Translations under genes and position numbers: made by a program
Notes under the pieces: generated by a model
Seen by the model: only the letters and a program-made list of their open reading frames with translations
What the model was told of the DNA's origin: nothing
Databases searched by the model: none
In this document: piece after piece, positions 6,676 through 41,345 of the stretch
How the letters are laid out: each line of letters starts with the position of its first letter
Position numbering within the stretch: the first letter of the stretch is position 1
Assembly: GCA_044892525.1 (NCBI GenBank)
Contig: CM097885.1
Coordinates: 31,250,001-31,314,000 of the forward strand
DNA length: 64,000 nt
Direction of reading: 5' to 3'
Source of the DNA: Schmidtea polychroa
Lineage: Eukaryota

Positions 6676-8430
6676 ATATCTGTGTAAAATTTTAAAAGAG
6701 AAAAAAGGTTTCAAAATGGTTTTAGAAAAGGTCGAAAATTTATATTATGAAATTTTATTAATTATTTAATTTTAGCCTGAATATCTTAATATATGTTTCT
6801 GGTACACACCGGAAAAATTTCGACACATTGAAGGCGAGAAAGAGAAACATAAAATTCTTAATAAAGTAATTTTTAATGTATTAAAAATGGCTTGTTATTG
6901 GCGACTAAATTTTATCTGGTTCCTGGTGTCCTTATTGTCCCAACAATAAATTAAGGTCCATGAACATCACGACCACAATACAAGTTAGATCGAATAAAAT
7001 GGTCAAATAATCAAAATCAAATAATGAAACAGAGATCGAGTTGTTAAGCGAATAATGTGACAGTCCATCAATGTGTATTTATCCCAAAATGATAATTTCA
7101 GATTCAAATCGTATTGATGGAGCAGCAACTGACTCGGATAAACAAAATTCTTAGCTCCAGGAATAATTTAGTCAAATTTATGTTCACATTTTAACTGTGT
7201 TCCTCTCGAAAAAATTTCCTAACACTTCTTTGCACTTGCTGCTAGAGTGTAGCAATTTTAGTTGAATTTTTTCTAGTAACATTATTTTAGCATTTATTAT
7301 TAAGTCAATATTATAATGGAGTTATTATATTGAGTTCTTTATATATCATTTTGTTGCGTAGGTAGGCTTGCCAACTCTCCCGTTTTTGCCGGAAGTCTCC
7401 CGGAATCGGCTTCCGTCTCCCGGTTAACGATGACCCGGGAGATTTAAATCTCCCGTCTTTCCGTTTTTACAATATTTTACAATTTTTCAAGAAAAAAGTG
7501 CAGTTTTTGAAGTTTTAACTTTTATTTGATTTCTCTAAAATCATCAAAGCTATTGGAGTCAGCCCGACGACATGAAAAATAAAATTTTAAAAACAAACAA
7601 AAATAGCATGATTTGTAAACTGTACTATGTAATATGTATAAATAATTGTTCTGTTTAAATCTTTATCATATTAGTCATCATATAGTTAAAATCACTAACA
7701 TATGTAAACCAAAAAAGTGAAACAACACTTGTTATATTATTTTTTAAGCGTTATACTGTTCGCAATTTTATAATCTCCCGGGTTAGAGGTTGTGAGAGTT
7801 GGCGACCCTATGTGTAGACTATGTATAAAAATTATTGAGCCCAGTCGAGTCATCGATAAAATTTGCCTTGGGACACCCGCTATGTCTGTTTGTATATGTG
7901 GTGATTGCGTGTGGGTGAATTCAGATTTTTGTATTATAAAATATAACAAAAAAATAACATACTGTAACATTTCTTTGTTTTGAAATGTTTTACTGACTTT
8001 TATTTCTTTAACATGGCTAACTTATTTAACAATCCAAAAAAATGAAAAGCTCCTTTTGTTGAATTTAAATTATAAAAATTGAAAATATTTTCTTAATTTC
8101 CCATGTCTCCCTTGGGATGTCTATCGAAGCGTGAACCAAAATCGTAAAGATTTTAAATAGTTTGTGATTGTGTCAATATTTATGAGAAATTCAAACAATA
8201 GTTGTGATATTTGCCGTTTTCATTACATAATTCAATTTATTAAGGTAACGGCAAAAATCAAGCAGTCAATGCTTGAAACTGGAACAACAATGATAAATTA
8301 TCAACCACTCTTTGGAAAACCAAACTTTTTTCGAATTATTTTATCAAATGCTTCTTGTAGAAAAGATGACCTTGATTTCGTAATAGATGAAATTGTCAAA
8401 TTAGGCGAAGAAATAGTTTTGGATTGCTGA
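6676..8430 (+). CDS. PLP-dependent group II decarboxylase (GAD/GADL1/CSAD family), last three exons: 6676-6730, 6776-6865, 8245-8430
   Basis: Spliced peptide YLCKILKEKKGFKMVLEK/PEYLNICFWYTP...ILNK/VTAKIKQSMLETGTTMINYQPLFGKPNFFRIILSN...DLDFVIDEIVKLG matches the GAD/CSAD C-terminus; phase-consistent GT-AG introns; upstream exons not found in the window. Confidence 0.9.
7363..7810. mobile_element. hAT-type MITE in the decarboxylase intron
   Basis: TIRs TAGGCTTGCCAACTCTC and GAGAGTTGGCGACCCTA; degenerate 8-bp TSD TGCGTAGG/TGTGTAGA. Confidence 0.75.
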
Positions 8431-9275
8431 AAAGATTTTACGACAATAGATGGCGGCGTTATTGGAACGGTTTATTAAACAGTTTATAATTATTGTTTAT
8501 CTATCTATAGTTAACTATAGTTAAACAAAAAATACTTTTGCATTCCTTTGTTTTAATGTACTTACTCGTTTATTTGTTTTACTTTTTATTTATAAAAATA
8601 TACTTTGTCTTTGTGAATTCATCTCTAAATATTCAATTTTGAGTTTTAATTAATTATTTAATATGTAAAATGGGTTAGATCGCAAAATACGGCCTTTTTT
8701 CAAAATAAGAATTTGAATTATTTATTTATTTAATCCCTATGTCAATATATTTAAAAATTTCAGGAAAGAGAGCTCTTGGAGAATATGAAATAATAGATAT
8801 TTTACAGAATACTGGCTTTTTAAAAACGCAAGTTAATTGTGAAAATTGCACAATTTTTTTGGGTCTACAGGTGTATAACGCGCACCTTGATGGCTTTAAT
8901 TTTAGGTGAAATTCATGCACGAATAAATCATCTATCAGAATTGGATCTATTCTGAGTAATTCAAAGCTTAGTTTAAGCAAAGTCTTGAGTCTAATTTATA
9001 GGTTTTCCCATGAAATACTTGTTGTTGTTGATACCGGTTTGGAACCCGGTACAACTAATATAATATATTTTTAGAGAGGCTCTAGAAAATCATGAAAAGG
9101 CTAATTTTGAAAATCTCGGTGGAGAAAATCACAAGGTGCAGATTGACGAGATTGTCATCTCCAAAAAGAAAATATAACAGAGGTAGAGTGTTGCCTCAAC
9201 AGTGGTTTTTTGGCGCAATAGATATCATTTCAAATCATTGTATTTTACGATGCATAGATAATAGAAGTAGAGAAA

Positions 9276-10829
9276 AGTAGTAGGATTGGGGCTCCCCAGA
9301 TCAGGAGCTCCCCGCATCACATATACCCCCTCCCCCCCCCCCCCGGGAAAAAATTTTTTTTTTAAAAAATAAAAGGTCAAGGTCATTTATTTTTTTTTTT
9401 TATTTAATTTTTTGTTTTAATTAAGTGATCTGGCGGGCTCCTACTTTTTTTCATCCCAAAAATTAATGTTCCCGCCAACGGACTTTATTGGACGATACCT
9501 CATCTTAAAGCTCAGTCCAAGACCTTTCGAATGAGCTATAGGTATCATATATATCCTTAATAGTTTTAATGTTATTAACAATTGATGACCACCATCTTTT
9601 CAACGTTAAATTATTATTATTTTCCAAAATATTATTAAGTGATCTGGCGGGCTCACACTTTTTTTTCATCCCAAAAATTAATGTTCCCACCAACAGATTT
9701 TATTGACCGATACCTCATCTTAAAGCCCAGTCCAAGACCTTTCGAATGAGCTATAGGTATCATATATATCTTTAATAGTTTTAATGTTATTAACATTTGA
9801 TGACCACCATCTTTTCAACGTTAAATTATTATTATTATTCAAAATATTATTAATTGGCCGGGCGGGGACATACTTTTTCTCATCCCAAAAATTAATGTTG
9901 CCATTATTCGAATTTATTAATCGATAGCTTATTTTGAAGCGTAGTCTAAGACCTTTCAATTGAGCCATAGAAGGTATCATCATCATTAACATCGGCAAAG
10001 TTATTAAAGTTTTACCGAGACCATTTTTCAAGGTCATTTATTTTTCAAAATATTATTTTCAAGGTCAAGGTCAAGGTCATTTATTTTTTCAAGGTCATTT
10101 ATTTTTTCAAGGTCATTTATTTTTTCAAGGTCATTTATTTTTTCAAGGTCATATTTTAAAATTTAAATGTACAGAGTTCCCGACAACGATAATTATTCAA
10201 CGATAGCTCATTTTAAAGCCCAATGCAAGACCTTTCGATTGATTCATAGAAGGTATCATCATCATTATTATTGACAAAGTTATTAACAATTGATGACCAC
10301 CATCTTTTCAACGTTAAATTATTATTATTTTCCAAAATATTATTAATTGGCCGGGAGGGCCCCTACTCTTTTTCATCCCAAAAATTAATGTTCCCATTAT
10401 CCGAATTTATTGGACGATACCTCATCTTAAAGCTCAGTCCAAGACCTTTCGAATGAGCCATAGAAGGTATCATCATCATTAATATTAACAAAGAGAATGA
10501 CTCACCCAATGACTCACCCAACGATGTCTAATATTTTTAGAACGATGACTCATCAAGGTCATTCCCAAGGTCATATGACTCATCAAGGTCAAGGTCATTT
10601 TTTTTTTAATTTAATTTTTTGTTTTAATTAAGTAATCTTTTTATTTTCAAGGTCATTTAATTTTCAAGGTCATTTAATTTTCAAGGTCATTTAATTTTTC
10701 AAGGTCATTTAATTTTCAAGGTCATTTACTTTTCAAGGTCATTTAATTTTTCAAGGTCATTTATTAAAATAATTATTATTTTCTAAGTTTTTAGTTTCTA
10801 AGTTTTATTATTATTATTATTATTATTAT
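9276..10829 (+). repeat. Left terminal inverted repeat (~1.55 kb) of ~214-bp degenerate units plus TCAAGGTCA/TGACTCA arrays
   Basis: Reverse complement of 22601-23953 apart from one extra ~214-bp unit and one extra 17-bp unit; looser homology continues inward to ~10960. Confidence 0.93.
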
Positions 10830-10831
10830 CA

Positions 10832-10965
10832 TATATACACCGAGTCTATCCGACAAGATATTCTGTCTCCCTATGGGTATTGCTAGCAAGGGTACTACTC
10901 ACATTCAACAAGTCACAAATGTACTACTCACACTCAACAAGTCACATGGGTACTGTTCACAAAGC
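10832..10965 (+). repeat. Conserved ~65-bp motif (TATATAC..AGTCTATCCGACAAGATATTCTGTCYCCCTATGGGTA) followed by 29-bp tandem units
   Basis: Further copies on - at ~19335-19420, ~21210-21301, ~22470-22591 and on + at ~63440-63505. Confidence 0.85.
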
Positions 10966-11027
10966 TACTGGTAAAAATATTCAAGACAAAACTTTCTAAA
11001 TTCTAAATATTATTCTTTAAATATACA

Positions 11028-11386
11028 CTAAAATTTATTAACACATTCACATTCATCATCTCCACAGTTCATAACATTTTCAACAACATGATCTATACAA
11101 TCCCTATATACACACGGTTCAGTATCCGTAAATTCCTCCATAGGTTCATCAATTTCTTGAATGCTTTCCTCATCATCTTGAGTGTTTTCTTCATCTGTTT
11201 CATCAAATTCCGAATCTTCACTCTCTGCTACCCAGTCTATATTTAATGCGTTTGTAACAGATAATATATCCGCCATTTTCACACCAGATATTTCTGCTAA
11301 TTTTTCCAATAAAAAGTTTATTATAAATTCTAAATATTAAATAATTCGATAATTAACTAATCATATTAACCTTTTTCTGTAGTCAT
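11028..11386 (-). CDS. Polinton small acidic protein of unknown function; exons 11386-11371 and 11329-11028
   Basis: ATG ACT ACA GAA AAA G|GTTAAT...TTTAG|AA TTT: a 41-bp intron joins in frame to give MTTEKEFIINFLLEKLAEISG...; D/E-rich middle and Cys-containing C-terminus. Confidence 0.7.
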
Positions 11387-11482
11387 TATTAGTATTTTAA
11401 AACTATAGTATATATTTGTTTATAGAAAATATAGAATATAAGCGAAAACAAATATGACTAAATACATTTATTAAATACAACA

Positions 11483-11902
11483 TTAAAATAACTGTGAAAG
11501 TCTAGCAGACATAATTTTCCAAATTGGAGAATACACATCATTATTATCAACTTTATATCCTTGGATTGTAATTGTTATATACCAATTTTCGTTTTCTTTG
11601 AAACTGATTTCATCAAAGGAATCATAAAATTTTGCATATCGGTTGTTGAAAAATGCATTTTGATTGCATGATAGATTCGTATTCAACCTTTTGAAAACAT
11701 CATCTATGGTTTTAATATCTAACATTGAAAGCGTGCCGGTTAAGAATTGAAATTGGGTAGGAATTAGCTTGATCGGTGACACCAATTTCATATTGATTTC
11801 TTCTTTTAAAAAATACATTTTGTAGTTGTGGAACATTTGAACAGGTTGTACAAGTTCTGGAACTACTTTTGGTTTTTCAGTGCTTGAAATTTTCTTGGTC
11901 AT
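11483..11902 (-). CDS. Polinton hypothetical protein (139 aa)
   Basis: Intact ORF with upstream TATAAAA and CCAAT boxes; no family recognised with certainty. Confidence 0.75.
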   Translation of the reverse strand: MTKKISSTEKPKVVPELVQPVQMFHNYKMYFLKEEINMKLVSPIKLIPTQFQFLTGTLSMLDIKTIDDVFKRLNTNLSCNQNAFFNNRYAKFYDSFDEISFKENENWYITITIQGYKVDNNDVYSPIWKIMSARLSQLF

Positions 11903-11935
11903 TGTGAATTATGATTAAAATGAAATGGTATAGGG

Positions 11936-11969
11936 TTTTTATACCTATGACTATTGTTTATCATCCAAT
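11936..11969 (-). promoter_or_regulatory. Pol II-type core promoter (TATA box plus CCAAT box) for the 139-aa gene
   Basis: Minus strand reads CTGATTGG...GGTATAAAAACC; TATA box at 11943-11936, ~40 bp upstream of the ATG at 11902. Confidence 0.55.
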
Positions 11970-12010
11970 CAGATTGCAGTATGTTTTTGTTTTAATTGAA
12001 TGATAAATAA

Positions 12011-12475
12011 TTAATTAAGTGATAATAAAAAATCTAAAAATTCTTTTCCTTCAATTATTGATTTAATTTCAGATATGATATTATCAACTATACTTTTGTA
12101 TTCAATATTTTTTATTCCAAGAATTACTATCTTACCGCTAGCGAATATATTTACACACATAGGGTTATATTTTATATATCTCAAAGCTGGAAATAATTCT
12201 GGTTCATAAAAGCATGGTATTAATTTAGCTAATTTATTTAAATTACAAGAAAAACCTATATCGGAAGTTACGGTTATCGATTGTATTTCTAAATCATAAA
12301 CATTATATTCACTAGCTTTGATTATTTCCTTACACCCCATAATTCTACATTTACCAGTTTTGAAATATATTATTGGATATTTATTACTTCTATTGATAAG
12401 TTGTTGTGGTTTCCCTATTGGAAATACCATTTTTGATACATCAGTTTTTGCCCTGTAATTTATATTTGAAAGCAT
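12011..12475 (-). CDS. Virus-encoded TATA-binding protein (TBP)-like protein, core domain only
   Basis: Two TBP repeats: LSNINY...IIYFKTGKCRIMGCK and EIQSITVTSDIGFSCNLNKLA...FYEPELFPALRY...VNIFASGKIVILGIK (canonical TBP has YEPELFPGLIYR and LLIFVSGKVVLTGAK). Confidence 0.9.
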   Translation of the reverse strand: MLSNINYRAKTDVSKMVFPIGKPQQLINRSNKYPIIYFKTGKCRIMGCKEIIKASEYNVYDLEIQSITVTSDIGFSCNLNKLAKLIPCFYEPELFPALRYIKYNPMCVNIFASGKIVILGIKNIEYKSIVDNIISEIKSIIEGKEFLDFLLSLN

Positions 12476-12579
12476 TTTAATGAAATAATTTTAAAAACTT
12501 TGATATATATAGGTATTTAAAAACAGAGTTCATTTAAATTATCAATATAAACAATAATTATATAGTTTAAATTTAAAAA

Positions 12580-13218
12580 ATGGAATTACGAAATGATGCA
12601 GTATACCAAATCGTTGGTCCAAGTGGTAGCGGGAAAACTTTATTTGTTTGTAAATTACTAAAATCAAATTTGTTTAAAACAAAATTCAACAATATTTATT
12701 GGCATAGGGGCGCCGACGAAGAACACGGATTGACGCAATCAAGTTTCTGTCAGTTGAAAAACATGAAAATAGTAAAGGGCTTTGATAAAAACTGGTCAAG
12801 TCGTTTGAAGAAAGATGATGTCATCATTATCGATGATTTGTATCAAGAAGCCAATAAAGAAAAGGACTTTAATAATTTATTCACAAAAATCAGCAGACAT
12901 GTTGGTGTAACAGTTATTTTCATAACACAAAATCTATTTCATCAAGGTGGTGCACATCGAACACGTAATTTAAATGTACAATATTTAGTTATTTTCAAGA
13001 ATCCTAGAGATGCAACTGTCATTGATTTTCTTGGACGACAAGCATACCCTAATAACCGTAATTTTCTTATCAGTGCATTTCAAGATGCCACGAAAATACC
13101 GCATGGGTATATATTTCTCGATTTCACACAACAATGCCCTGATGATATACGGGTAAAAACAGATATTTTCAACCCAAAAGGTGCCATGGTATATAAACAA
13201 AGTTCAAAACAAAGTTGA
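12580..13218 (+). CDS. FtsK-HerA/A32-like genome packaging ATPase
   Basis: Walker A GPSGSGKT, Walker B IIIDD, ITQNLF and YLVIFKNPRD motifs typical of Polinton ATPases. Confidence 0.95.
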   Translation: MELRNDAVYQIVGPSGSGKTLFVCKLLKSNLFKTKFNNIYWHRGADEEHGLTQSSFCQLKNMKIVKGFDKNWSSRLKKDDVIIIDDLYQEANKEKDFNNLFTKISRHVGVTVIFITQNLFHQGGAHRTRNLNVQYLVIFKNPRDATVIDFLGRQAYPNNRNFLISAFQDATKIPHGYIFLDFTQQCPDDIRVKTDIFNPKGAMVYKQSSKQS

Positions 13219-13231
13219 AAACATATAAATC

Positions 13232-13726
13232 ATGTTTTCAAAAACAAGGATATCGGGTAAAAAACAACCAAAAGTTCCACCAACAACTAGTTATACTCCA
13301 TCTAAAGATCTTATTACAGAAAATTTTCCTGCAATGAATCTTATTTCGAAAAATCCTAAACCTAAACCAAAAAGTAAAACCACAAAGAAAGTAAAAGTTG
13401 TTAAAAATCATCGGAGTTTCCCGTTTTTCAATACATTGTTAAAGGCACCAAGTATGAAAAGAAACAGTATTTTGCAATCATTTCCAAATTATGTTGTCGA
13501 TGATTTACTCGATATTATACTTAAAGTAGTCAAAGGCAAGATTAAAATCAGTAAATCTAAAAAGCAATTATTGAGTAAACATAGGAAACCTTTGCTATCA
13601 TTAGTAAATAATAAAAATCGTCAACAAATGAGAAAAATTATATATAAACAACAAGGGGGATTTATCGGTGCATTGATACCTTTAGCAATATCATTATTAG
13701 GTGGAATAATAGGAAGTCGATCATAA
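13232..13726 (+). CDS. Basic Polinton protein with an adenovirus pX-like hydrophobic C-terminus
   Basis: Lys-rich body; ends QQGG|FIGALIPLAISLLGGII, resembling the adenoviral pX GG|xLPxLIPxI cleavage and hydrophobic tail. Confidence 0.8.
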   Translation: MFSKTRISGKKQPKVPPTTSYTPSKDLITENFPAMNLISKNPKPKPKSKTTKKVKVVKNHRSFPFFNTLLKAPSMKRNSILQSFPNYVVDDLLDIILKVVKGKIKISKSKKQLLSKHRKPLLSLVNNKNRQQMRKIIYKQQGGFIGALIPLAISLLGGIIGSRS

Positions 13727-13729
13727 ACA

Positions 13730-13957
13730 ATGGGTGCTAATCCTTCATTACCAGACATTAAATTTAATATTAAATCTTCTTGTTGTAATGGAGAAGATTT
13801 GGACGAACCCGGAAGACGAAGCCGGTTTTGGTGGAGTGGCAAAATTAAGGAAAAGAGTTCCGAATTCGAAAAAGGAAACACAGAAGTGGTTATCAGACCA
13901 GCTTGCGTACAGTTTGAACAAACCAATGCGGAAACGATTCCCAACAAGAGCATATAA
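13730..13957 (+). CDS. Small, putatively N-myristoylated protein overprinting the integrase 5' end
   Basis: ATG lies 3 nt after the previous stop in AAACAATGG context; MGANPS fits MGxxxS; SSCC could be acylated. Confidence 0.5.
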   Translation: MGANPSLPDIKFNIKSSCCNGEDLDEPGRRSRFWWSGKIKEKSSEFEKGNTEVVIRPACVQFEQTNAETIPNKSI

Positions 13958-14843
13958 AACATATGGAATAAATGATTTATGGCAAATGGATTTGATGGAG
14001 ATGATACCCTATTCGAAAATTAACAATGGGTATAAATATATTTTAACATGTATTGATGTATTCAGTCGGTTTGCCCGAGCAATACCCGTCAAGGCAAAAT
14101 CTGCAGATGAAATGTCCAAAGCTGTTAATCATTTATTTAAAGACGGACATCCTAAAAACTTGCAAACTGATTTAGGTATTAATATTATTATTTTTATTAT
14201 TATTATTATTATTTTAGGTAAAGAATTCTACAACAGTAAAGTCAAGCAAATCCTCATTAAATTGAAAATAAACCATTACTCAGTACATTCTCAATACAAA
14301 GCTGCTCATGTTGAAAGATTTAACCGAACTTTGAGAGATAGATTAAAGAAATTATTCGTGCATCAAGGTAATAAAAAATGGGTATTGGTTTTACCAAAAA
14401 TAATAACCAGTTATAATCACTCATCACATCAAGGACTGAATGGATTAAGGCCGATTGATATCACGTCAAAAACAATCTATTCTAAAAAACCTGAAAAAAT
14501 TACAAAACCGAAATATAAAGTAGGTGACCATGTTAGAATTAGTAAAATTAGTGCATCACCATTTATTAAAAATTTCGATACAAATTGGAGTGATGAAGTC
14601 TTTGTAATTTCAAAAATAAATACTAAACAGAATCCTGTAATGTATGTCATCAAAGATAATGATAACAATATTGTACAAGGAAAATTTTATGAGCAGGAAT
14701 TACAAGTTATTCCTCCCCCAAAAGTATTTAGAATTCAGAAGATTTTGAAAACTAAAAATAAAGGCAAGGATAAACAATACTATGTCAAATGGCATGGTTA
14801 TCAAAACCCATCATGGATATCAGAAAAGGATCTAGTAAAGTGA
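13788..14843 (+). CDS. Polinton RVE (DDE) integrase with C-terminal chromodomain-like region; 42-bp intron at 14176-14217
   Basis: LWQMDL, CIDVFSRF, QTDLG|KEF after removing GTATT...TTTAG, AAHVERFNRTL, YKVGDHVRIS, NWSDEVF, YYVKWHGY; likely start MEKIWTNP at 13788. Confidence 0.95.
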   Translation: MEKIWTNPEDEAGFGGVAKLRKRVPNSKKETQKWLSDQLAYSLNKPMRKRFPTRAYKTYGINDLWQMDLMEMIPYSKINNGYKYILTCIDVFSRFARAIPVKAKSADEMSKAVNHLFKDGHPKNLQTDLGINIIIFIIIIIILGKEFYNSKVKQILIKLKINHYSVHSQYKAAHVERFNRTLRDRLKKLFVHQGNKKWVLVLPKIITSYNHSSHQGLNGLRPIDITSKTIYSKKPEKITKPKYKVGDHVRISKISASPFIKNFDTNWSDEVFVISKINTKQNPVMYVIKDNDNNIVQGKFYEQELQVIPPPKVFRIQKILKTKNKGKDKQYYVKWHGYQNPSWISEKDLVK

Positions 14844-15856
14844 ATTTTTATACTATTTTACCAAGCAATAGTTGCCCGCTTATTCATCCAGATAATCAAG
14901 CCAGTAAATTCATGGTCAATCTCCAGAATCCGATTTCTTTAAATGGGGACTGGGAAGTTGCACTGCAAGATTTTACATTCGTGTACAATACATTCCCATT
15001 TTATAGTCAATGTAAGATTGATTTCAAAAGGAATGCTATGAAAACATGTAGTGGTATCTTTATTATCAGTAATTATGATAAAACATATCATATTCCGAAT
15101 CAAATATTAGATCAGCACTGCTCTATGTTTTACAAGGATGGATTAAATATCAGTTGTGATTTTAAACCATTTACAATAACATTCGAATATATTGAAGATG
15201 CCAGACGAATGGGTTGCAATAAGTTGAAAAATGAAGTTATGGAAACAGAATATTTATTACGCTTTGATCTATTTGAAGCAAACAGTGTAATGAGAGAAGA
15301 AATCAAAATATCAGTGTCGTATAATAATGAAGTTGAAGAATCATTCACCTTCGCTGACGAATTATATATTGATAAACTTGATGTGTTACTTAAATATTTA
15401 AAGTATAATTGTTCACACATATTTAAAAGTTTGGACATTGTGAAAGATTTGTTATTTACCTTCAGTTTGAATGATGACATTTGCGAAGTTACATTTGATA
15501 AAAATTTGACAAATACACTTGGATTAGAGAAGCAGCAATATCGGGAAAAATCGGCTGGTATACGTAAACCAAGAATACTTGAACATCATCAACAAATGTT
15601 CATATATACTAATATTATTGAGCCTATAATAGTTGGTGATTCCAGTGTTCCTCTATTGAAATCGGTGTGGATTGGAAAATATGAACATGATGAAGTTGTC
15701 AATATAAATATAGATAATCCCATGTATTTACCAATTTCAAGCTCATGTATAAACAATATAGAAATAAATATTCGTGACGATAGTGGAAAACTTATAAACT
15801 TCCCAAAAGACTCAAAAACTCATTTGACACTACATTTTCGTAAAGTAGATGGCTAA
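14813..15856 (+). CDS. Minor capsid protein (penton)
   Basis: FYTILPSNS..PDN..F...L..PISL.GDWEVAL N-terminus; MFIYTNIIEPIIVGD..VPLL...YLPI...IEINIRD..G...LTLHFRK C-terminus. Start is 14789 or 14813. Confidence 0.88.
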   Translation: MDIRKGSSKVNFYTILPSNSCPLIHPDNQASKFMVNLQNPISLNGDWEVALQDFTFVYNTFPFYSQCKIDFKRNAMKTCSGIFIISNYDKTYHIPNQILDQHCSMFYKDGLNISCDFKPFTITFEYIEDARRMGCNKLKNEVMETEYLLRFDLFEANSVMREEIKISVSYNNEVEESFTFADELYIDKLDVLLKYLKYNCSHIFKSLDIVKDLLFTFSLNDDICEVTFDKNLTNTLGLEKQQYREKSAGIRKPRILEHHQQMFIYTNIIEPIIVGDSSVPLLKSVWIGKYEHDEVVNINIDNPMYLPISSSCINNIEINIRDDSGKLINFPKDSKTHLTLHFRKVDG

Positions 15857-16211
15857 TTCCGATATTATTAGTATGTATAGTGATAGCCAATCTGGTGGTG
15901 AATTACCATATTTTATTGGTAAACAGTATGGATCAGGTTGGTTAAAAACAATAGGGAGATTTGCACTTCCCATTCTTAAACGTATTGGTAGTTTTGGCAT
16001 GAAAACTGCTAAAGATGTGATTATGAATGAACAGAAAATATTACCATCCCTAAAAACAAATGCTTTAGCGGAGTTAGGGAAGGTTCTACCTGGAGTTGCT
16101 GGTATGTTTCAAAAAGATACGCCTCCAGCCCCAGCTCCAAAACGTAAAGGGCATGGAATATCGCGTATAAACAAACGAATGAAAGGACATGGAACTATAT
16201 TTGCAAAATGA
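15849..16211 (+). CDS. Small basic Polinton core-like protein
   Basis: QSGGELPYFIGKQYGSG..IGRFALPILK pattern and basic tail with GxG motifs; lies between the minor and major capsid genes with overlapping start/stop codons. Confidence 0.8.
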   Translation: MANSDIISMYSDSQSGGELPYFIGKQYGSGWLKTIGRFALPILKRIGSFGMKTAKDVIMNEQKILPSLKTNALAELGKVLPGVAGMFQKDTPPAPAPKRKGHGISRINKRMKGHGTIFAK

Positions 16212-17431
16212 TTTGTGGTAAATCCGAATTATGTATATTTGATAGACCATCGCCCCAGGCTGTAATAGAATTTGGTGCCTTTGAGGAAGTTTTTCCTATG
16301 AATTCAATTACTGATAGTAGAAATGATATCGAGTTTTATATTAATGGTTCGCAAACTGAATATTTAGATTTGAACGATACTTTATTGACTGTTCAGATCA
16401 AGGTTGTAGATAAAGATAGAAAGGTTTTGGATGCCAATGCGGATGTATTACCAAACAATTTCATGTTTCATACTCTGTTTAAAGATGCAGTGTTGGGATT
16501 TAATAATATCAAGATTGAGGGTGGAAATAATACATTCATTCACAAGGCTTTGATAGAAACTATTTTAAATTACAATTCAGATACTAAAAATACCTGTCTT
16601 ACACCTATGGGTTATGCAGCAGCAGATGATGAAAGAAAAAAGTGGGTTAAAGGCTCAAAAGTATTCACTATGTGCTCATCATTACAACTTGATTTTATGG
16701 ATCAACCGAAATATTTACTACCGGGAGTTAATATACATATTAGACTGAAAAGATCTGATTCTGCATTGTCTCTTACTAGTGCAACTGGTGCACCAATATG
16801 TCAATTAGTTGATGCAAAATTATTGGTGAGAAGAGTTCGAGTAGACCCGTCAGTATTAGCTGGTCATCAATTGGGGCTTAATTCAAAACATGCAATTTAT
16901 CCTTTAAAAACAAAGGAAATTGTACAATTTGCTATTGCTAAAGGTGCTTCATCATTCTATAAAGAACAAATATTTGGTGACAGAAGAATGCCTAATTTTA
17001 TTCTGGTAACATTTCAAAGTGAAACGCAATATAATGGATCGTATACTGCTTCCAGCTCAATTTTCAAAAATTTTGGTGTTACTTCATTGACTTTATCGAA
17101 AAATACTGATTATAGAGAAACATATACTCAAGATTTCGAGAATGATAATTACTGTGCGACATATATGCAGAGTATTGTTAGAAATCTAGGTTATTTAGAT
17201 AAAAACTTGAATTGTGGAATAACTCTTGAAGAATTTAAAAGCAAATACCCATTTTTCACATTTGTTCTAGCTCCCGATTTTGATTTAAATCAGAGTCAAT
17301 TACCACAAAACGGGAATTTACGACTGGATATAAAGTTTGCAAAGGCCATTACTGAACCAGTACATGTTATAATATATGGAGTATTTGAAAATGAAGTTCA
17401 AATTACTGCAAATAGAACCGTGCTAGTATAA
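16208..17431 (+). CDS. Major capsid protein (double jelly-roll, Polinton PY type)
   Basis: CGKSELCIF..P..Q, IEFYI.G..TEYLDLNDTLL, PNNFMFHTLF, QPKYLLPGV, HAIYP, GNLRLDIKFA, VIIYGVFENEVQITANR. Confidence 0.92.
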   Translation: MICGKSELCIFDRPSPQAVIEFGAFEEVFPMNSITDSRNDIEFYINGSQTEYLDLNDTLLTVQIKVVDKDRKVLDANADVLPNNFMFHTLFKDAVLGFNNIKIEGGNNTFIHKALIETILNYNSDTKNTCLTPMGYAAADDERKKWVKGSKVFTMCSSLQLDFMDQPKYLLPGVNIHIRLKRSDSALSLTSATGAPICQLVDAKLLVRRVRVDPSVLAGHQLGLNSKHAIYPLKTKEIVQFAIAKGASSFYKEQIFGDRRMPNFILVTFQSETQYNGSYTASSSIFKNFGVTSLTLSKNTDYRETYTQDFENDNYCATYMQSIVRNLGYLDKNLNCGITLEEFKSKYPFFTFVLAPDFDLNQSQLPQNGNLRLDIKFAKAITEPVHVIIYGVFENEVQITANRTVLV

Positions 17432-17459
17432 ATGTATACAGAAACACCAAAAAGTTGTC

Positions 17460-17843
17460 ATGGAGTAAGTTTTTCAATACTGTTTAATTTATTAAAGTAG
17501 TTCTGTTCAGGTCAATAGAATTGGAAAACAGATATTGGGAAATGAATTTGTAGGAGTTTTTCCTCTCGATAAAATCCCATATTTGAGCAATAATCAAGCC
17601 ATAATCGTCAATACTCAATCGTCTCATCTTGGTGGAGAACATTGGATTGCTATATATGTGAAACCTAGTAATATATTCGTGTTCGATCCTATGGGTTTCT
17701 ATTACCCTGCTTTGTTGGTATCAAAACTACAAACAATGGGGAAACCTATTGTATATAATAAAACAATGTTTCAAAATCCCTTGACACAAACATGCGGTCA
17801 ACATTGTTTAGCTTGGTTGTTGTATAAAAAATTTGATGATTAA
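17460..17843 (+). CDS. Adenain-like capsid maturation cysteine protease (spliced)
   Basis: FVGVFPLD, IVNT, GEHWIAI (His), FDPMG (Asp), FQ...TCGQHC (Gln/Cys). Donor GTAAGT at 17465; the acceptor at 17500 gives MDSVQVNRIGK from ATG 17460, while ATG 17432 with the acceptor at 17510 is also in frame. Confidence 0.92.
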
Positions 17844-17873
17844 TAAATGTATTTTGTATCCTTTGTTGTTGTT

Positions 17874-17904
<31 letters not shown>

Positions 17905-20900
17905 TTTTATTATTATTATTATTATTATTTGTGATTTTGAAAGATATATCACGTTATAATTGCTATATAATTAGCTGAATCGATGAAGAATTATGATCAA
18001 TCAATATATTTCATCTCTAGTTAGGTATTTGATGATACATGTGGTTAAATATTGATTTTAGTGAATTTTGATCTTTTAGTGGACTCTTTGAATTTAGATA
18101 CTAAATTATTTCAATGGACGGATGTCTGTAACAAATAAATAAAATTCATATTTTGAAGAATTTTCTATGGATTTTAAGAGAATTGATATATTAAAGGTCT
18201 GATATATTATAGCCGGTTGGAATTAGTGAAGGTTCAGTTAAAATGGTAATATATGATTTTTAAGGGGTGTTTAAAATGATAGAAATATTTGGTGAGGAAT
18301 CGGTTATGGTGGAAATGTTTGAAATCTCTATTTAAATCGACAATGTTCTTATTGGTAAAATTTTAAAGGGAAATAGTCAGTATTTAGCTATGAATTAATA
18401 ATAGTTCCTGTGAAATTATATCGTTTTAGAGGTTTATTAGGTTGTGATGAATGTTATTGCACAGTAATTTAGATTTATGTTTTAGAACCAGTTTTTTATT
18501 AATTATCCATTGTTTTATTAAGTCGTTTAGGGTTAATGATCAATTTACTTGGTTTTCACAATGAAATATTTGAAATCTTTAGAATTAATTGGGATTGATA
18601 TCAAAGGTTATTGCTTTAAATTATTTTACTTAAGAAGTTATTTTATTCATTGTGGGGACATCAGTGACAAAACTTGAGAAATATTGACTTAAAAGTTGGA
18701 AATCGACAACGGCTAAAGAAAATTGATCTTTATTGAAGGAATTTTATGATTTTAATTAGAAATTAAATCGGTTGAATATTAAAGGTAAAATCTATTGAAG
18801 GAATATTATTATCGGATGGATAAATGATATTTTGCTAAATTACCTTTGCTAAATATTATTTTAAATGACTAAAAATAACAAAATTAACCAATATTCATAA
18901 ATTTATCGCACAAAATATCCATGTTTTGGTTACTCAAACATCTTAAATTTCTCGCAAAGATATATTACGTCTAATGATCATCTAATTAAATTAGAAAATA
19001 ATTGTTACTTTATATTTCTAACTAATAAGCCCCTTAATTGGATAAATGATAACCATATTTCTATTATGACTCCTTTAAATATTTTTGCCTCAAACAAATT
19101 TACTCCAAATGATAAAGAATTTAAAATTATCAATGAATAATGACCATGTTTTTCTCATATTATTAACTATTGTAACGAACATTAGATGAATAAATTAATT
19201 TTTGCTTTAAATGACTACAAAGTTAACCAATAAATTAGTCGCTCGACATAAGTGTAAAGTTACATTTAAAATATTCACGAATTTCTGATCATCTCACTAA
19301 ATTACCTAAGAATTTCTAAATGATTAATATAGCCTTGCGACATGTTGAATGTGACCAGTACCCTTGCTAGCAATACCCATAGGGGGACAGAATATTTTGT
19401 CGGATAAACTAGGAGTATATGGTCTTTATTGATATATCAAAATACTGTTATTTATAAATCAACTAAAAATACTCAAAAATACTATATTATTTTACTGAAT
19501 GATACCTTAAATGTTTTTAATATACATATTTCTAAAATAAATCAACAGTTCAAACCAACAACATGTATGGATGACCACCCATTGTTAATTTATTCCCAGT
19601 GTCACGTCCCTCAAAAATACCGTGAGTGTTTTAACAAAACTGAGCTCAAAGAAACTTTCCAGATAACAACTCACCTGAATGTTTTGAACAAAAATGAGCG
19701 AAATTGAGAACAAACGATTAGATGGCGATTAACTTCTGGCCACAACCCTAACAACATGAAAATTAAGATTTTAATTATTGAATTCGTTGTTTACTGCCTG
19801 GAAATACTAACAGAATATTTTTTAATTCAAAGAATCTTCATTATAAATTTTGAATTTAAAAAATTAAATGAAGGATATATAAGTGTACATAAAATTATAA
19901 TATTATATAAAATTATACTATATAATAATGTTAATGTTTAAATATGCTTAAATAACTAAATTGTTTAAATATTTTTAAATAACTAAATTAAATTATTTAA
20001 ATTTAAATTATTTAAATATACTTTTGATATAACTTTATTTCTTTCGTTTTAGTATCCATAAAGTAAGTAAATAAAGAATTTACTACAATATTTTAATTAT
20101 TTTACTTAGTAATGAAGAAAATGAATTATATGATTATGAAGAAGATGAACCAGATAAAATGGTGAAACACTAAATGACTTATGTTCTGGATTTAGAAATT
20201 TCTTATTAAAACATGAATTATAGAAAAAAATGAACCAGACAAAATGGTGAAACATTGCTATGTTCCGGATTTCTTAAATGAATTAGCTGATTGTGGGTGT
20301 CCTTCAACATGAATTATCAGACTTAAATTATGTAAACTTTCAACGATTGTCAAGAAAAATGGGAAAAACCGATGTTTTAGCAATTAGATATTGTAAAGTA
20401 CTACCTGAAGAATATTATTATTAATGTAAGACATGAATTAATTCTTTAAAATATATATATTATATTTAGGTATCTGTGTTTTATGGTGGGAAATGACATT
20501 GAAAAAGTATACCACAAATAACAGTTGCCTAATTTATCAAGCCTGTGACGATAAAATGCTAGATAATGTAAGTTAATTGCTTTTAAATCAATATAAATTT
20601 TAGCAATGATAGTTGACGCCGCATCAGAAACTAAGAAATACGTCCAATTTGCAAGATGTATTCCATGAAATCACTATCAAATGGCCTGATGGAGAGATTA
20701 ATTTTGAGATAGATTACCAACAGAAGAGCGAGAAAAATTTGTAAATTAAATATAATAGGGTTGGGTGGGTCCTCTTTATCCCTTAATTAATATATATTTA
20801 CAAGCTGATCGTCGTGGTGGGCGGTTGTAATCCAACTAGTGGGAGGCCTCTGTAAATATATATTTGTGTTAGTGAAAACATTAATTAATTTGGTTATAGT

Positions 20901-21459
20901 GCCAATGACGCATGTATTTTGAAATTATACGTTTCGAATGTGCTGGTAGTTGACTACCCATGCTAGGCGTAATGTTCCGTACGGAAAACTATAATGCCCA
21001 GGTTCTTCTGACCCCACTTGGGGGAGGCACAGACGACCCTTGTGGACGCGAACAAATATCCACCGTGTCTTTCAGGCACAGATATTTGGTCACTGCTCAT
21101 TAGGCCTGGCAATACTAAATGCATACACTTTGCCTTGTCCTCTCTTGTCTTTATTTTTATCGTTTAAATAGTGTGTGTGATAAGTTTTATTTACTAACCC
21201 TAATTAATATACCCTTGCGATATGTTGAATGTGAGTAGTACCCTTGCTACCATTACCCATAGGGGGACAGAATATCTTGTCGGATAGACTAGGAGTATAT
21301 ACACCCATGTTAAACAAGGTATGTGTATATAGAATGTATGTGTAAAATTATCGCTCCTTATTGAAAATTTCATGTAAAGGCAAACACAGAATACTGCAAA
21401 CATATAATAATACTCTACCCCATAACTTAGTGTGTAAAAATTATTTAAGGTTTTTTCAC

Positions 21460-21526
<67 letters not shown>

Positions 21527-22051
21527 GTTTAATGGGTTGTATATGTGTGTAAAAAATATTTGAGGTTTTCACGAATATTGATAATAATAATGGTTTATGA
21601 GTGTTTTTATGTTTTTGACTAATATTTGCAATAATAATAATGGTTAATGGGTTGTGTGTGTGTGTGTGTAGAAAATATTTTAGGTTTTCACTAATATTGA
21701 TAATAATAATTGTTAGTGGGTTGTGTGAGTGTAAATAATATTTTAGGTTTTTGACTAATATTTGCAATAATAATAATAATAATAATAAGTTTAATGAGTT
21801 GTATGTGTGTGTGTAAAAATATTTTAGGTTTTTAATATTGATAATAATAATAATAATGGTTAATGGGTTGTGTGTGTGTGTAAAAAATATTTTAGGTTTT
21901 CACTAATAATGATAATAATAATGGTTAATGAGTTGTGTGTGTGTGTAGAAAATATTTTAGGTTTTTAATATTGATAATAATAATAATGGTTGAGGGGTTG
22001 TGTGTGTGTGTGTGTAAAAAAAAAAAATATTTTAGGTTTTCACTAATAATG

Positions 22052-22104
<53 letters not shown>

Positions 22105-22105
22105 T
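21460..22105 (+). repeat. Degenerate ~60-bp tandem array inside the Polinton
   Basis: Recurring (AAT)n-GGTTAATGGGTTG(TG)n-TAAAAAATATTTTAGGTTTTCACT units, about 9 copies. Confidence 0.85.
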
Positions 22106-22350
22106 CCCGCGCGTGTTAATATCATTCCCAATAATAATGATGATAATAATTTTTATATATCAGTAGATAGATCTCGCACTGGGCCTTAAAATGAGCTATA
22201 GATCAATAAAATCTGTTGGTGGGAACAATAATTTTTGGGATGAAAAAAAGTAGGTCCCCGCTGGATCACTTAATAATATTTTGAAAAATAATAATAATTT
22301 ATGTGTCATCGTATGAGTCATCGAATGAGTCATCGTTCTAAAAATACATG

Positions 22351-22407
<57 letters not shown>

Positions 22408-22600
22408 TTCTTGGGAGTTGTAATAATAATTCTTTGAAAATATCTTAGTCATTATTAATAATACTAATAATACCCTAGCGAGTTGTTGATTGTGAGCAGT
22501 ACCCTGGTGACTTGTTGAATGTGAGTAGTACATTTGTGTGCAGTACCCATAGGGAGACAGAATATCTTGTCGGATAGACTATGAGTATATAATAATTATA

Positions 22601-22602
22601 AT

Positions 22603-22660
<58 letters not shown>

Positions 22661-23953
22661 CTTAGAAACTAAAAACTTAGAAAATAATAATTATTTTAAT
22701 AAATGACCTTGAAAATTAAATGACCTTGAAAATTAAATGACCTTGAAAATTAAATGACCTTGAAAATTAAATGACCTTGAAAATTAAATGACCTTGAAAA
22801 TAAAAAGATTACTTAATTAAAACAAAAAATTAAATTAAAAAAAAAATGACCTTGACCTTGATGAGTCATATGACCTTGGGAATGACCTTGATGAGTCATC
22901 GTTCTAAAAATATTAGACATCGTTGGGTGAGTCATTGGGTGAGTCATTCTCTTTGTTAATATTAATGATGATGATACCTTCTATGGCTCATTCGAAAGGT
23001 CTTGGACTGAGCTTTAAGATGAGGTATCGTCCAATAAATTCGGATAATGGGAACATTAATTTTTGGGATGAAAAAGAGTAGGGGCCCTCCCGGCCAATTA
23101 ATAATATTTTGGAAAATAATAATAATTTAACGTTGAAAAGATGGTGGTCATCAATTGTTAATAACTTTGTCAATAATAATGATGATGATACCTTCTATGA
23201 ATCAATCGAAAGGTCTTGCATTGGGCTTTAAAATGAGCTATCGTTGAATAATTATCGTTGTCGGGAACTCTGTACATTTAAATTTTAAAATATGACCTTG
23301 AAAAAATAAATGACCTTGAAAAAATAAATGACCTTGAAAAAATAAATGACCTTGAAAAAATAAATGACCTTGACCTTGACCTTGAAAATAATATTTTGAA
23401 AAATAAATGACCTTGAAAAATGGTCTCGGTAAAACTTTAATAACTTTGCCGATGTTAATGATGATGATACCTTCTATGGCTCAATTGAAAGGTCTTAGAC
23501 TACGCTTCAAAATAAGCTATCGATTAATAAATTCGGATAATGGCAACATTAATTTTTGGGATGAGAAAAAGTATGTCCCCGCCCGGCCAATTAATAATAT
23601 TTTGAATAATAATAATAATTTAACGTTGAAAAGATGGTGGTCATCAATTGTTAATAACATTAAAACTATTAAGGATATATATGATACCTATAGCTCATTC
23701 GAAAGGTCTTGGACTGAGCTTTAAGATGAGGTATCGTCCAATAAAGTCCGTTGGCGGGAACATTAATTTTTGGGATGAAAAAAAGTAGGAGCCCGCCAGA
23801 TCACTTAATTAAAACAAAAAATTAAATAAAAAAAAAAATAAATGACCTTGACCTTTTATTTTTTAAAAAAAAAATTTTTTCCCGGGGGGGGGGGGGGAGG
23901 GGGTATATGTGATGCGGGGAGCTCCTGATCTGGGGAGCCCCAATCCTACTACT
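22601..23953 (-). repeat. Right terminal inverted repeat (~1.35 kb)
   Basis: Reverse complement of the left TIR; ends ...CCCAATCCTACTACT. Confidence 0.93.
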
Positions 23954-24908
23954 GAGAAACATTAAGAAATGTTATCCTCGAAACTATAACTGAAGGATAT
24001 ATTGTTCATTCTGATAGATGGACCTCTTATATGAGTATTTTTAGAGAAGAAGTAGGTTTTATATACGAAAATGTGAATCACAGTCAGAATTTTGTGGACC
24101 CAGAAACATGTATCCATACAAATGCGATAGAAAAAGAACTCAAGCAATCGCTAAGAAGAAAATTTCTTCGATCTGAAGAAATCTCGAACTATATCTTACA
24201 GAATTCTGTACCAGGGATAAATATCGTAATAGCAAGAATGGCATGTTTACATTAATTTGTGAAACTTTAAAGCTGGTGAAAACTGATTAAAAAACTTTTT
24301 TAAACATTTGTAAGTTTAAAGTATCTTTTTAAATATTTATTATGTGACTGTTAAGAAATATTTTGAAAAAAGGCTGTATTTTGCGACATAACCGCAAAAT
24401 GATATAAAAGAATTTTAACATAAAATTTACTTATTATTTTTAAGGAAAATATATTATATTAAAAAATAAATTATCTACATCGGACTTTGAATAATTTTTT
24501 CAAGTCATTTATAATTTTAACCAAAATTCAAAAACTAAATTATTTCCGTCACTGTTTTTCTGTAAGTTTCGTTGAAGATACCTAAATAATAAAATTCAAT
24601 AATTATTGAATGAAATAAAATGATCAGGGGGGAATGTATGAAAAGGAGGATGGGTTGTTTCAGAATTCTGAGAAACAAAAAGTGATAAAAAGAAATTGAA
24701 AAAGAAAGAAAAATAACAGAATCAATAAAAGCTAAAAAATGAAATACGACAAGGTCGTTCTTAAGTAACAAGTAAAAAGTGAAGTAAAAAAATAAAGACA
24801 AAATCGAAATTAAATCTGCAAATCTCAATAGCCTGTACGACATAGTAAAAAGGAATCACTGGGGAAACCGAGAGATGGCGTCTCATAAAAATTATATATC
24901 TCCACAGC

Positions 24909-27190
24909 CAAGACCGTTCCTGGCGGGGGGAGCAGAAGGTGCCCCCGCACGTGAGCGGCCAAATTGAAGGGCGACCGCCAACCTGTTATTATTATATTTA
25001 AAACAAATTGATTTTAGATAATCTATCAAATAAAGTATACTTAATAAAAGTAAGTTTTACTATTTAGAAAATTTATTATGAATAAGATGTCAGAATTAGA
25101 TGTCAGAAAGAAAAACAAAAAGGAAATCCGGTGCTTATTATCGAAAAAACAAGGAAATAAAAATAACAGAAATAGAAAAACTAAGTGGATCTTTAACACA
25201 GTTTTTGGAATCCTCAGAAATATCATCTGCGGCAAGTACGTCAGAAAGGTTTAATACAGAAATTTATACTGAAGAGCCTAATACATTTCTGGATGTGCTA
25301 GATTCGTCTTCAAGTCCTACAAAGAAGCCAGAACAGCCGCAAGATGACTCATCATCTTCAACATCAGAGTCAGAAAAGTCCGAAGAAGAGTTTTCTTATG
25401 AAACAGAATCAGTAAGTTTGTCTTTAGTGCTGGCAGATCCAGGAACATGGCCTGAATCGATAAATAAACAACTTTTAGAAATTTTAGTGAAGAAAGGACA
25501 TGTGCAACTTCGTGATAATGTTCATTTCCCATCGGATGAGACAAACAGAAGATTTTCTGCAACATATTTTTTTTGAATTTTAGAAAATGGTGAAACAATT
25601 TCCAGAAACTGGATAGTTTACACTACTAAATTAAATATTGTATTTTGTTTTTGCTGCAAACTATTCAGCAAAAATATTATTAAGCTGACCAGTGGTGGAT
25701 ATTCTGATTAGCGACATGCAACAATGTATTTTGTTCAACATGAAAACAGTGTACAACATATCGAATGTTCAAAAAAGTGGTGTGAATTAAAATTGCGGAT
25801 GCAAAAGAACTGCACAATAGATAAAGAGCTTCAAACATATTATGAAATGGAAACAAAATGATGGCGTGGTATTATTGAAAGAATGATAGCTATTGTTCAA
25901 TTTTTATCTGGTTAGTCGCGGCCCATTGACAGAGTTATACAATATAAATAATGGAAATTTCATGAAAACTGTAGAAATGTTAGCTAAATTTGATCTGTTA
26001 ATAACAGAGCATGTAAGAAACGTACAAACGGCAAAACAAAAAAAAGACATATGCCACATTATTTGGGAATCCATTTTCAAAACGAAATCATTGAATTATT
26101 AGCAGCAGCTGTAACAAAGAAATTAACAACCATTATAAAAAATTCAAAATATTTTTCTATTATACTTGATTGCACGTCAGATTTAAGCCATGCCGAACAA
26201 ATCAGGTTTGTTTTTCGGTGTGTGAATTTGACGCAAAATGAAGCAGTATTTTCTTGGTTTTTCTCCATTAGCTGATACGACTGGTGAAGGTTTATTTAAC
26301 TTCCTTACTAACGAATTGTTGCCTAAATTTAGCTTGGATGTACAAAATGTTCGTGGTCAAGGCTATGATAATGGATCCAACATGAGAGGTAAAGATATAG
26401 GACTTCAAAAAAGAATTATAAATAGAAACCGTAGAGCAACTTTTGTACCATGTGCAACACATAACTTCAATTTAGTTCTTAATGATGCTGTTAACATTAA
26501 TAATGAGACCGTTGGATTTTTCGATATTGTTCAGGAATTATTTAATTTTTGTTCTGCCTCTCCATATAGATGGAATATGTTAAAAATCAAAATTAAATTT
26601 TTAACTTTAAAACCCTTAAGTATTACTAGATGGTCGAGTCGTATTAACGCTATAAGACTATTGCACCAAAATATTAAAGAAATTTCTGAAAGTTTAATTA
26701 ATTTAAGAGATGATCAAAGTAGAGATATAAGCACAAGAAATAAGGCACATTCGTTATCTGGAAAATTAAAGTCATTTAAATTTTTATGTTCGTTAATTAT
26801 CTGGCAAGATATACTCTCAAAAATTGACGTGGTTAGCAAAATGCTACAAAATTCCAACATTGACATTAATGAATGCAGTAAAGCGTTGGGTAATTTAAAA
26901 AGATTTTTAAATGAGAAACGAAACGATAGCAGTTTTAATGAATATATAAATGAAGCTACAAACCTTGCACAAGTTATTTATGTAGAAAATGAATTTCCAC
27001 AAACCCGTATAAGAAAAATACCTCGTCAATTTTTAAATGAATCATGTGATGACTTTGTAGAACATCCTAAACAAAACTTTAAAATTAATTTTTATTTTCG
27101 TATTGAATTAAGTTTCTTTTACGGTTTCTTTGAATTGAAATAAAATTTTACCGAATACCATTTTTTTCAATATTTACATGGCGGCAAATG
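24909..27190 (+). pseudogene. hAT-superfamily (ZMYM1-like) transposase pseudogene with GC-rich left end
   Basis: DPGTWP, FCFCCKLF, YFSIILDCTSDLSHAEQ, RGQGYDNGSNMRG, FVPCATHNFNLVL, LKPLSITRWSSR; stops and frameshifts; no right TIR seen. Confidence 0.88.
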
Positions 27191-40500: not shown

Positions 40501-41345
40501 TAAACAAAATACTAGAAACAACTTAATTTAAACAAAATATTAAAAGCCACTTCATTTAAACAAATTTTAAAACATCCATATTGATATCTATATTACTGGA
40601 CAAACATTCAAACAAAATTTTAAAAATAATTTGATCTAACAAAATATAAAAAATCTCCATAAAATTATATCTAATATCTAATATAAACTACAGTAATACG
40701 CCGCACTTACGTACACTTTGGGACCGGAGCGTGTACGTAAAACAAAAATGTACGTAAAATGAATCTACTGCTTTTATTAATGAATAATATGTTTGAAATA
40801 AACTAAAACAATAAACATATAAATAAAAAGAAAAAGAGGGATATTATGCATGTAGTTTTATACTTTTATTTTAGTGTACGTAAAACGGGGTATTACTGTA
40901 GTTAATATAAATTATATATCTTAATCTATCGCTAAAATATCGAAATTTTCGATATTTTGAATTCATAAATTGGTACCAATATCAATCACATATATTTCCA
41001 GGTTTTGAGCATATCAATTGCTCCTTCGTACATATGCTTCACAAAGGCATGCCAATGCGCTGCCAATGTGGGCATTGGTTCAAATTAGTATCATTTGATG
41101 AATATTATGCCATCATTAATACGGCAAGAGAAAAGCGGTATGGCGAAATTAAAGATTCGGCAGAATTTATAGCGCTTGAATCGGAATTGAAACGATGTCA
41201 GGATGAATTCAATGAATTATCATTCAGTGGCAAAGCGGTCAGTGAGTTATCACCGGAGGCACGTGAAATAATGGGTAAGATGAAGGCGGCCTGGGCAGGT
41301 ATAATTAAAACAAGGAAACAAATCGAGCATATGCTGGATAATTAG
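37548..41345 (+). CDS. COX5B: Cytochrome c oxidase subunit 5B-like; exons 37548-37695, 37739-37824, 37865-37967, 41002-41345
   Basis: Transit-peptide-like N-terminus; LPDGLGEAVGKRRYELLA; GSTLENPNYIASNNWRRQFVCTC; LHKGMPMRCQCGHWFKLV with four Zn-ligand Cys; all introns GT-AG and phase-consistent. Confidence 0.88.
39925..40620. repeat. ~29-30-bp minisatellite (AAACCACTTCATTTAAACAAAATATT) in COX5B intron 3
   Basis: About 20 tandem copies, with a higher-order duplicated interruption CATCCATATTCCTGGATAAACATTAC. Confidence 0.9.
40691..40898. mobile_element. Tc1/mariner (pogo-like) MITE
   Basis: TA|CAGTAATACGCCGCACTTACGTACACT...AGTGTACGTAAAACGGGGTATTACTG|TA. Confidence 0.85.

Follow-up and report, generated by a model that had tools for sequence, protein, structure and literature searches.

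Animal Polintons or Mavericks (adintoviruses) are described as having AGT-repeat ends, long terminal inverted repeats (TIRs) and a 6-bp target-site duplication (TSD), and as encoding an RVE integrase, an A32 ATPase, an adenovirus-type protease, a double-jelly-roll major capsid protein (MCP) and a single-jelly-roll penton (PMC8502044, PMC8097293, PMC4028283). An autonomous Polinton is defined by its protein-primed DNA polymerase B, pPolB (PMC5499653), the ends are described as carrying motifs of protein-primed copying (PMC8097293), and inverted terminal repeats are reported to act as origins (PMC9863843); PMC6431247, PMC3014272, PMC11414722 and PMC11162782 provide general background only. The element considered here is a 14.7-kb Polinton at positions 9276..23953 of the window, that is, of the whole 64,000-nucleotide stretch analyzed (GenBank assembly GCA_044892525.1, contig CM097885.1, positions 31,250,001 to 31,314,000), from the planarian Schmidtea polychroa, whose AT-rich genome comprises 781 Mb in four large chromosomes. 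The window element shares these terminal and coding features with animal Polintons, its penton being a probable one, but differs from them in having no pPolB. Whereas defective vertebrate Polintons are described as decayed fossils, the window copy is very young, and its polymerase arm has been cleanly swapped out. With S standing for the arm of structural genes, P for the pPolB arm and X for a non-coding arm, it is an S-X hybrid that combines the S arm of an autonomous member of its family with one arm of the family's gene-less palindromic satellite; with a probability of about 0.72, the two were joined by a template switch at a (TAT)n tract and the product was later copied in trans by the pPolB of a sister element.

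Exchange of the polymerase module while the structural genes stay alike is described for nematode Polintons (bioRxiv 10.1101/2023.08.22.554363), in which one polymerase replaces another, whereas in S-X elements a non-coding satellite arm replaces the polymerase; recombination among Mavericks has also been suggested (bioRxiv 2022.07.12.499685). Three loci of the present genome (L097, L118 and L128) combine an S end ∼90% like that of the window with a different pPolB (62–64% to family A), representing a polymerase swap between families. Tlr1 and the Polinton-like viruses, as described in PMC5499653, resemble the window element in having capsid genes, an ATPase and, in Tlr1, an RVE integrase without an active pPolB, but they are old lineages in which a helicase replaces pPolB, whereas the window element retains its protease and has no helicase. 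Neither an SF1 nor an SF3 helicase stands in place of its pPolB. According to Kapitonov and Jurka (2006), non-autonomous Polintons reportedly share the ends of an autonomous partner, move in trans and are deletion derivatives. The S-X elements have ends and sequence in common with an autonomous family, lack the enzyme needed, and have integrations of their own. Defective-interfering and snap-back viral genomes, like helper-dependent adenovirus stuffer vectors, keep their origins, have lost replication genes through template switching or fold-back, and need a helper. The window element would work in a similar way, as a defective, helper-dependent Polinton, although S-X elements differ from defective-interfering genomes in being inherited as chromosomal insertions and in retaining the full structural module.

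The window element is bracketed by a perfect TSD, GAGAAA, at 9270..9275 and 23954..23959, and AGTAGTAGGATT is read at its left and right termini. The left TIR (9276..10950, plus strand) ends in AGTAGTAG and contains 215-nt and 17-nt repeats, and the right TIR occupies 22470..23953 on the minus strand, the inner edge of each being approximate. These TIRs of ∼1.5–1.7 kb are 99% complementary across 1,039 nt; the left TIR has one 215-nt unit more than the right, repeat counts are unequal, and the two are ∼94% alike when gapped. Long TIRs, AGT-repeat ends and a 6-bp TSD are therefore all present. The longest stop-free frame of the element is 427 aa and none behind the protease gene exceeds 146 aa, and no helicase or other replication gene was found among them. 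PolB motifs are absent from all six frames of the element, and tblastn with three pPolBs against 17850–22600 gave no match. A profile built from 15 pPolB frames of the same genome scored −2.0 bits on the whole element and −2.8 bits on 17850–22600, within the range of 20 shuffled controls (−1.9 to −6.0), while two positive controls exceeded 1,100 bits. The empty tblastn search and the shuffle-level score rule out a decayed pPolB in 17850–22600. In the autonomous sisters the true motifs are DINNLYG and GDTDS, so that the patterns used in an earlier note on this DNA (DxxSLYP and YxDTDS) would miss pPolB even where present. Nevertheless, the description given there of a capsid-complete Polinton with a perfect TSD, near-identical TIRs and no pPolB is confirmed.

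The genome was searched with the terminal 100 nt of the window element, a probe already proposed in the earlier note, and the gene content of ten sisters chosen from 40 scored matches was listed: three are S-P, three S-X and four X-X, with a perfect TSD in all ten. In the three S-P sisters (L035, L044 and L047), the same S arm as in the window is followed by a pPolB frame of 1,370–1,388 aa. The L044 frame has every exonuclease and polymerase motif and matches PF03175 (E 5e-28), a match obtained with the C-terminal part of pPolB and missed by the whole-frame Pfam search. The four X-X sisters contain no genes and consist of two X arms in palindromic arrangement about a loop of 650–700 nt, with arm-to-arm likeness of 99.97, 99.8, 97.3 and 95.1%. 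The X arm of the window element (17930..22470, plus strand) is non-coding and is 91–95% identical to the arms of X-X elements and to other S-X copies; an Rfam search with it found no RNA family. A decayed P arm as the source of X was rejected: nhmmer returned simple repeats only, and 305 frames from autonomous elements match nothing in X but shared sub-terminal repeats. A 29-nt sub-terminal motif occurs at window positions 10877 (minus strand), 19376, 21256 and 22546, the second and third of these within the X arm. An arm of an S-P element has a single copy of the motif and an X arm as many as three, and the additional cis copies could favor the copying or packaging of X.

Exact 26-mer probes, whose counts are lower bounds, detect at least 1,592 X, 340 MCP and 239 family pPolB sites in the genome, and a degenerate end pattern, likewise a lower bound, has at least 1,043 matches; reversed controls gave 0. 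The MCP and pPolB counts exceed the maxima given for vertebrate Polintons (287 total copies, 38 intact). Among the first 100 X sites, 64 form 32 inverted pairs and three lie behind an MCP probe. A census of the first 100 of the 340 MCP-probe sites, all on one chromosome (C1, 1–237 Mb), comprises 62 S-P, 31 S-X and seven other arrangements. The pPolB probe was found downstream at 41 of these sites, and fetching the remaining 59 revealed 21 with pPolB, 31 with X and seven others; the 31 S-X include the window element itself and both halves of one fold-back element. In the same range, 17 pPolB sites lack the MCP probe, of which 11 are S-P elements with a variant MCP, and the other six are a rearranged S piece, a truncated copy, an interrupted copy, a 6.4-kb P-only element and, at two sites, a single P-P palindrome. 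Two further P-P palindromes with family ends were examined outside the census range. The P-P palindromes L143/144 and L148/149 have matching TSDs, and one arm of L148/149 has a 1,359-aa frame in which all motifs are present; L147 is a P-P palindrome with a truncated pPolB, and L130 is the 6.4-kb P-only element. Five arm combinations (S-P, S-X, X-X, P-P and S-S) are thus found in one genome, in hundreds of young copies.

L112/L113 and L120/L121 are structural-arm fold-backs with the axis within the MCP gene, and in L112 and L113 a short stretch of X separates the TIR from the first small open reading frame (ORF). Another family has a 15.5-kb palindrome with pPolB only, which extends from L066:7198 to L068:2704 (G000:C3, ∼32.53–32.55 Mb); at its center lies a 1.66-kb remnant with window-family ends, and the same six bases are mirrored on both flanks.

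The joint of the window element is a (TAT)n tract (17862..17930, plus strand), at which X takes the place of the P arm of autonomous copies. All 33 S-X joints examined lie in the (TAT)n tract that follows the protease gene and make up seven classes of 13, 7, 5, 3, 3, 1 and 1 copies. The X entry points of five classes were found within the four sampled X-X elements, at short A/T microhomologies; those of the other two were not found in these elements. Over 5,573 nt (window 11028–16600) there are 0 differences between the window element and autonomous L036, or S-X copies L042 and L046, while its X arm differs by 5–6% from those of L042 and L046 and by 6–9% from X-X arms. Among 38 X cores placed in a tree (4 of the 42 rows lacked the core stretch and were left out), S-X and X-X arms intermingle, with five label changes, and 0% of bootstrap trees have a single change. 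Within a joint class, X divergence is 0–1.6% beside the joint and 1.6–2.4% distally, which fits few origins followed by later copying and further exchange. The window element differs from the nearest other joint class at 11–13 positions per 400 nt, indicating that its joint is an event of its own, and the presence of this joint at four sites on four chromosomes, 96–99.8% alike across 3 kb, excludes a private mis-assembly.

Separate integration of S-X elements was examined by fetching 27 of the 31 census copies, of which seven had no detectable end. In the remaining 20, with both ends detected, 19 have a perfect TSD of their own, and the left and right end variants, compared within 45 nt of the terminus, differ in 12. 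For nine S-P elements fetched, both ends were found in seven, a TSD in six and unlike ends in two. At G000:C1 29.79–29.89 Mb at least three similar S-X copies are clustered, two of them with the same six right-flank bases, and this cluster is likely a local duplication rather than a set of separate insertions. Because the window element has no pPolB, yet 19 of 20 S-X elements have their own TSD and sisters with the same ends encode pPolB, the earlier proposal that it needs a helper is supported, to the extent that genome sequence permits. S-X elements are 12.5–17.6 kb and S-P elements 16.2–17.7 kb long; the autonomous sisters, at 16–18 kb, are close to the vertebrate Polinton mean of 17 kb reported in PMC8097293. 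Among 34 paired ends within the first 100 end matches, 21 are 11–18 kb apart, seven 5–11 kb, three less than 5 kb and three more than 18 kb, suggesting a size preference that is not strict.

Panhandle and snap-back replication models form the background of the mechanism proposed here for the S-X hybrids. A polymerase copying an S-P molecule would slip in the TAT tract and resume on an X-X molecule replicating alongside, presumably while free linear molecules are being copied by protein priming and strand displacement. The S-X product, having two valid ends, would be copied in trans by the pPolB of a sister through the shared ends, and would be integrated by the family integrase, either its own or that of a sister. 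Such switches between S-P and X-X would be recurrent, generating S-X repeatedly, and fold-back on the same molecule by the same chemistry would yield the X-X, P-P and S-S palindromes. More speculatively, X might serve as a stuffer that holds the genome near a packageable size.

Several points weigh against a template switch on free genomes. No free DNA, particles or transcripts have been observed, and the model is drawn from genome sequence. Comparisons of X with the pPolB profile, the 305 frames and Rfam gave no source for it, and the census spans 100 of 340 probe sites on a single chromosome. No X-P element occurs among the 17 lone pPolB sites, although this reciprocal product would be expected from a plain crossover. 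Mismatched ends are more frequent in S-X (11/19) than in S-P (1/6), but not significantly so (p=0.16), and repeat-unit slippage may explain some of the mismatches. Support within the X tree is weak, with 8 of 32 inner branches starred, and the starred branches force just two label changes.

The main rival to a switch on free DNA places the origin in the chromosome: an integrated S-P element would break and, with an X-X copy at another locus as the repair template, have its P arm converted in place; the old TSD would be kept, and the resulting S-X element would not move by itself. Perfect TSDs are expected in this case, X-X donors are very plentiful, and the missing X-P form suits one-way conversion. 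However, the same joint is repeated at many sites (13, 7, 5, 3 and 3 of the 33 joints, and four sites for the window class) with near-identical adjoining X, and in 12 of 20 copies the variants at the two ends, read within 45 nt of the terminus, are unlike, which would require conversion up to the very end. Conversion in place therefore appears unlikely. A facultative split genome, in which S-X and pPolB-only elements would supply one another's missing functions and could last without S-P, is rather improbable. The pPolB-only partners with family ends that it calls for, for which the earlier note had recommended a search, do exist (L143/144, L148/149, L147 and L130), but they are few, 3–5 of the 58 pPolB-probe sites in the surveyed range, whereas complete S-P elements are the majority (62 of 100 MCP sites and 11 of 17 lone pPolB sites) and the S arm of the window element is undiverged from that of S-P. 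The bipartite system suggested previously thus holds as regards the existence of such partners but not as an obligate split, which is excluded by the occurrence of 62 of 100 S modules within complete S-P elements.

A distinct satellite lineage of long standing, which lost pPolB a single time and provides other elements with capsids, is very improbable. Although pPolB is missing from ∼31% of S modules and their frames are kept open, the 0 differences from an autonomous sister and the seven joint classes already largely refute it, and the X arms do not form one clade. The related idea of a capsid-supplying satellite is unsupported, because most S modules lie in S-P elements, one of them identical to the window element over the 5,573 nt compared, and a helper with an identical S arm needs no capsid from the window element. 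A one-off deletion, a decayed pPolB or a mis-assembly, named beforehand as what would overturn the account, is scarcely credible, since, even though the joint sits in a simple repeat unbridged by public contigs, S-X elements, whose TSDs are distinct, account for 31 of 100 copies, the window joint recurs on four chromosomes, no pPolB remnant is present and X is foreign sequence rather than a gap.

The structural arm of the window element contains the genes expected of a Polinton virion. On the minus strand are an acidic 82-aa ORF (11028..11276) that belongs to no family and is 100% identical in autonomous sisters, a 139-aa ORF (11483..11902) with no usable match in Pfam or Atlas, and a 154-aa TBP-like protein (12011..12475) that matches one TBP repeat (PF00352, E 1e-15) and has 98 homologues. 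A short TBP-like gene is also found in other autonomous families of the same genome at 51–56% identity, and a figure legend of PMC8502044 names TBP among its gene labels. All further genes are on the plus strand, beginning with the A32-type packaging ATPase (12580..13218; PF04665, E 2e-7). It is followed by a basic 164-aa ORF (13232..13726) that is 53–56% identical in two other autonomous families and that, from its position, we take to be PZ-like. The RVE integrase with chromodomain (13788..14843) matches PF00665 (over the cut-off) and PF00385, has the D, D and E motifs, and is interrupted by a 42-nt AT-rich insert bounded by GT..AG (14176–14217), likely an intron.

The next gene (14789..15856) encodes a probable minor capsid protein, or penton, as judged by its Atlas neighbors, mainly Preplasmiviricota at 0.97, and by its location one gene upstream of the MCP, which matches the gene position described in PMC4028283; folding from the single sequence without an alignment gave a pLDDT of only 31 and no usable fold. 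In another autonomous family (L051, L062 and L063) two or three penton-like genes lie in tandem, their number differing among members. A basic 120-aa ORF (15849..16211), presumably core-protein-like, precedes the double-jelly-roll MCP (16208..17431), whose predicted fold (pLDDT 91.8) matches the MCPs of iridovirus, PBCV-1, mavirus and Sputnik (E 1e-16 to 1e-12), while a sequence search of the PDB with the MCP gave no match. The adenovirus-type protease (17432..17843; PF00770, E 1e-6) has the His, Asp, Gln and Cys motifs; its main frame lacks an ATG, and a GT..AG-bounded stretch at 17465–17510 is likely an intron after a short first exon. No spliced junction was seen in the contigs of four public sequencing runs, which hold no information on expression and also pass over the TAT tract. 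The MCP, packaging ATPase and protease typical of Polintons are therefore all encoded, and the virion and integrase genes noted earlier are present, but those for the protease and integrase are likely interrupted by introns. Outside the element, the flanking ORFs at 8182–8430 and 25100–25576 have no match in a Pfam search; we take the first to be similar to an amino-acid decarboxylase at its C-terminal end, and the second to a hAT-type transposase at its start. A tandem array of 27–28-nt units lies at 39899–40645.

Polymerase swaps in Polintons are already known, but the S-X hybrid class with a satellite arm appears to be new: literature searches turned up no arm-swap class that is capsid-complete yet lacks pPolB, although subscription papers, Repbase and supplements may contain one. 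Surveys that demand both pPolB and integrase overlook about one-third of the capsid-bearing copies of the window family. According to PMC8097293, animal Polintons have so far been seen neither replicating nor as particles. Each arm combination found here would represent a frozen replication product, and the S-X class pins the switch hotspot to a single (TAT)n tract and makes it possible to test by counting whether Polinton genomes recombine in the free state and whether a capsid limits their size. It is possible, although unlikely, that this Polinton population is heading toward a segmented genome, with the genes for particles and integrase on S-X, the polymerase on P-P, and the gene-less X arm as a stuffer holding each form at a packageable 11–18 kb. 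If so, it would provide indirect evidence that animal Polintons spread by means of particles, and a natural record of a one-piece DNA virus splitting.

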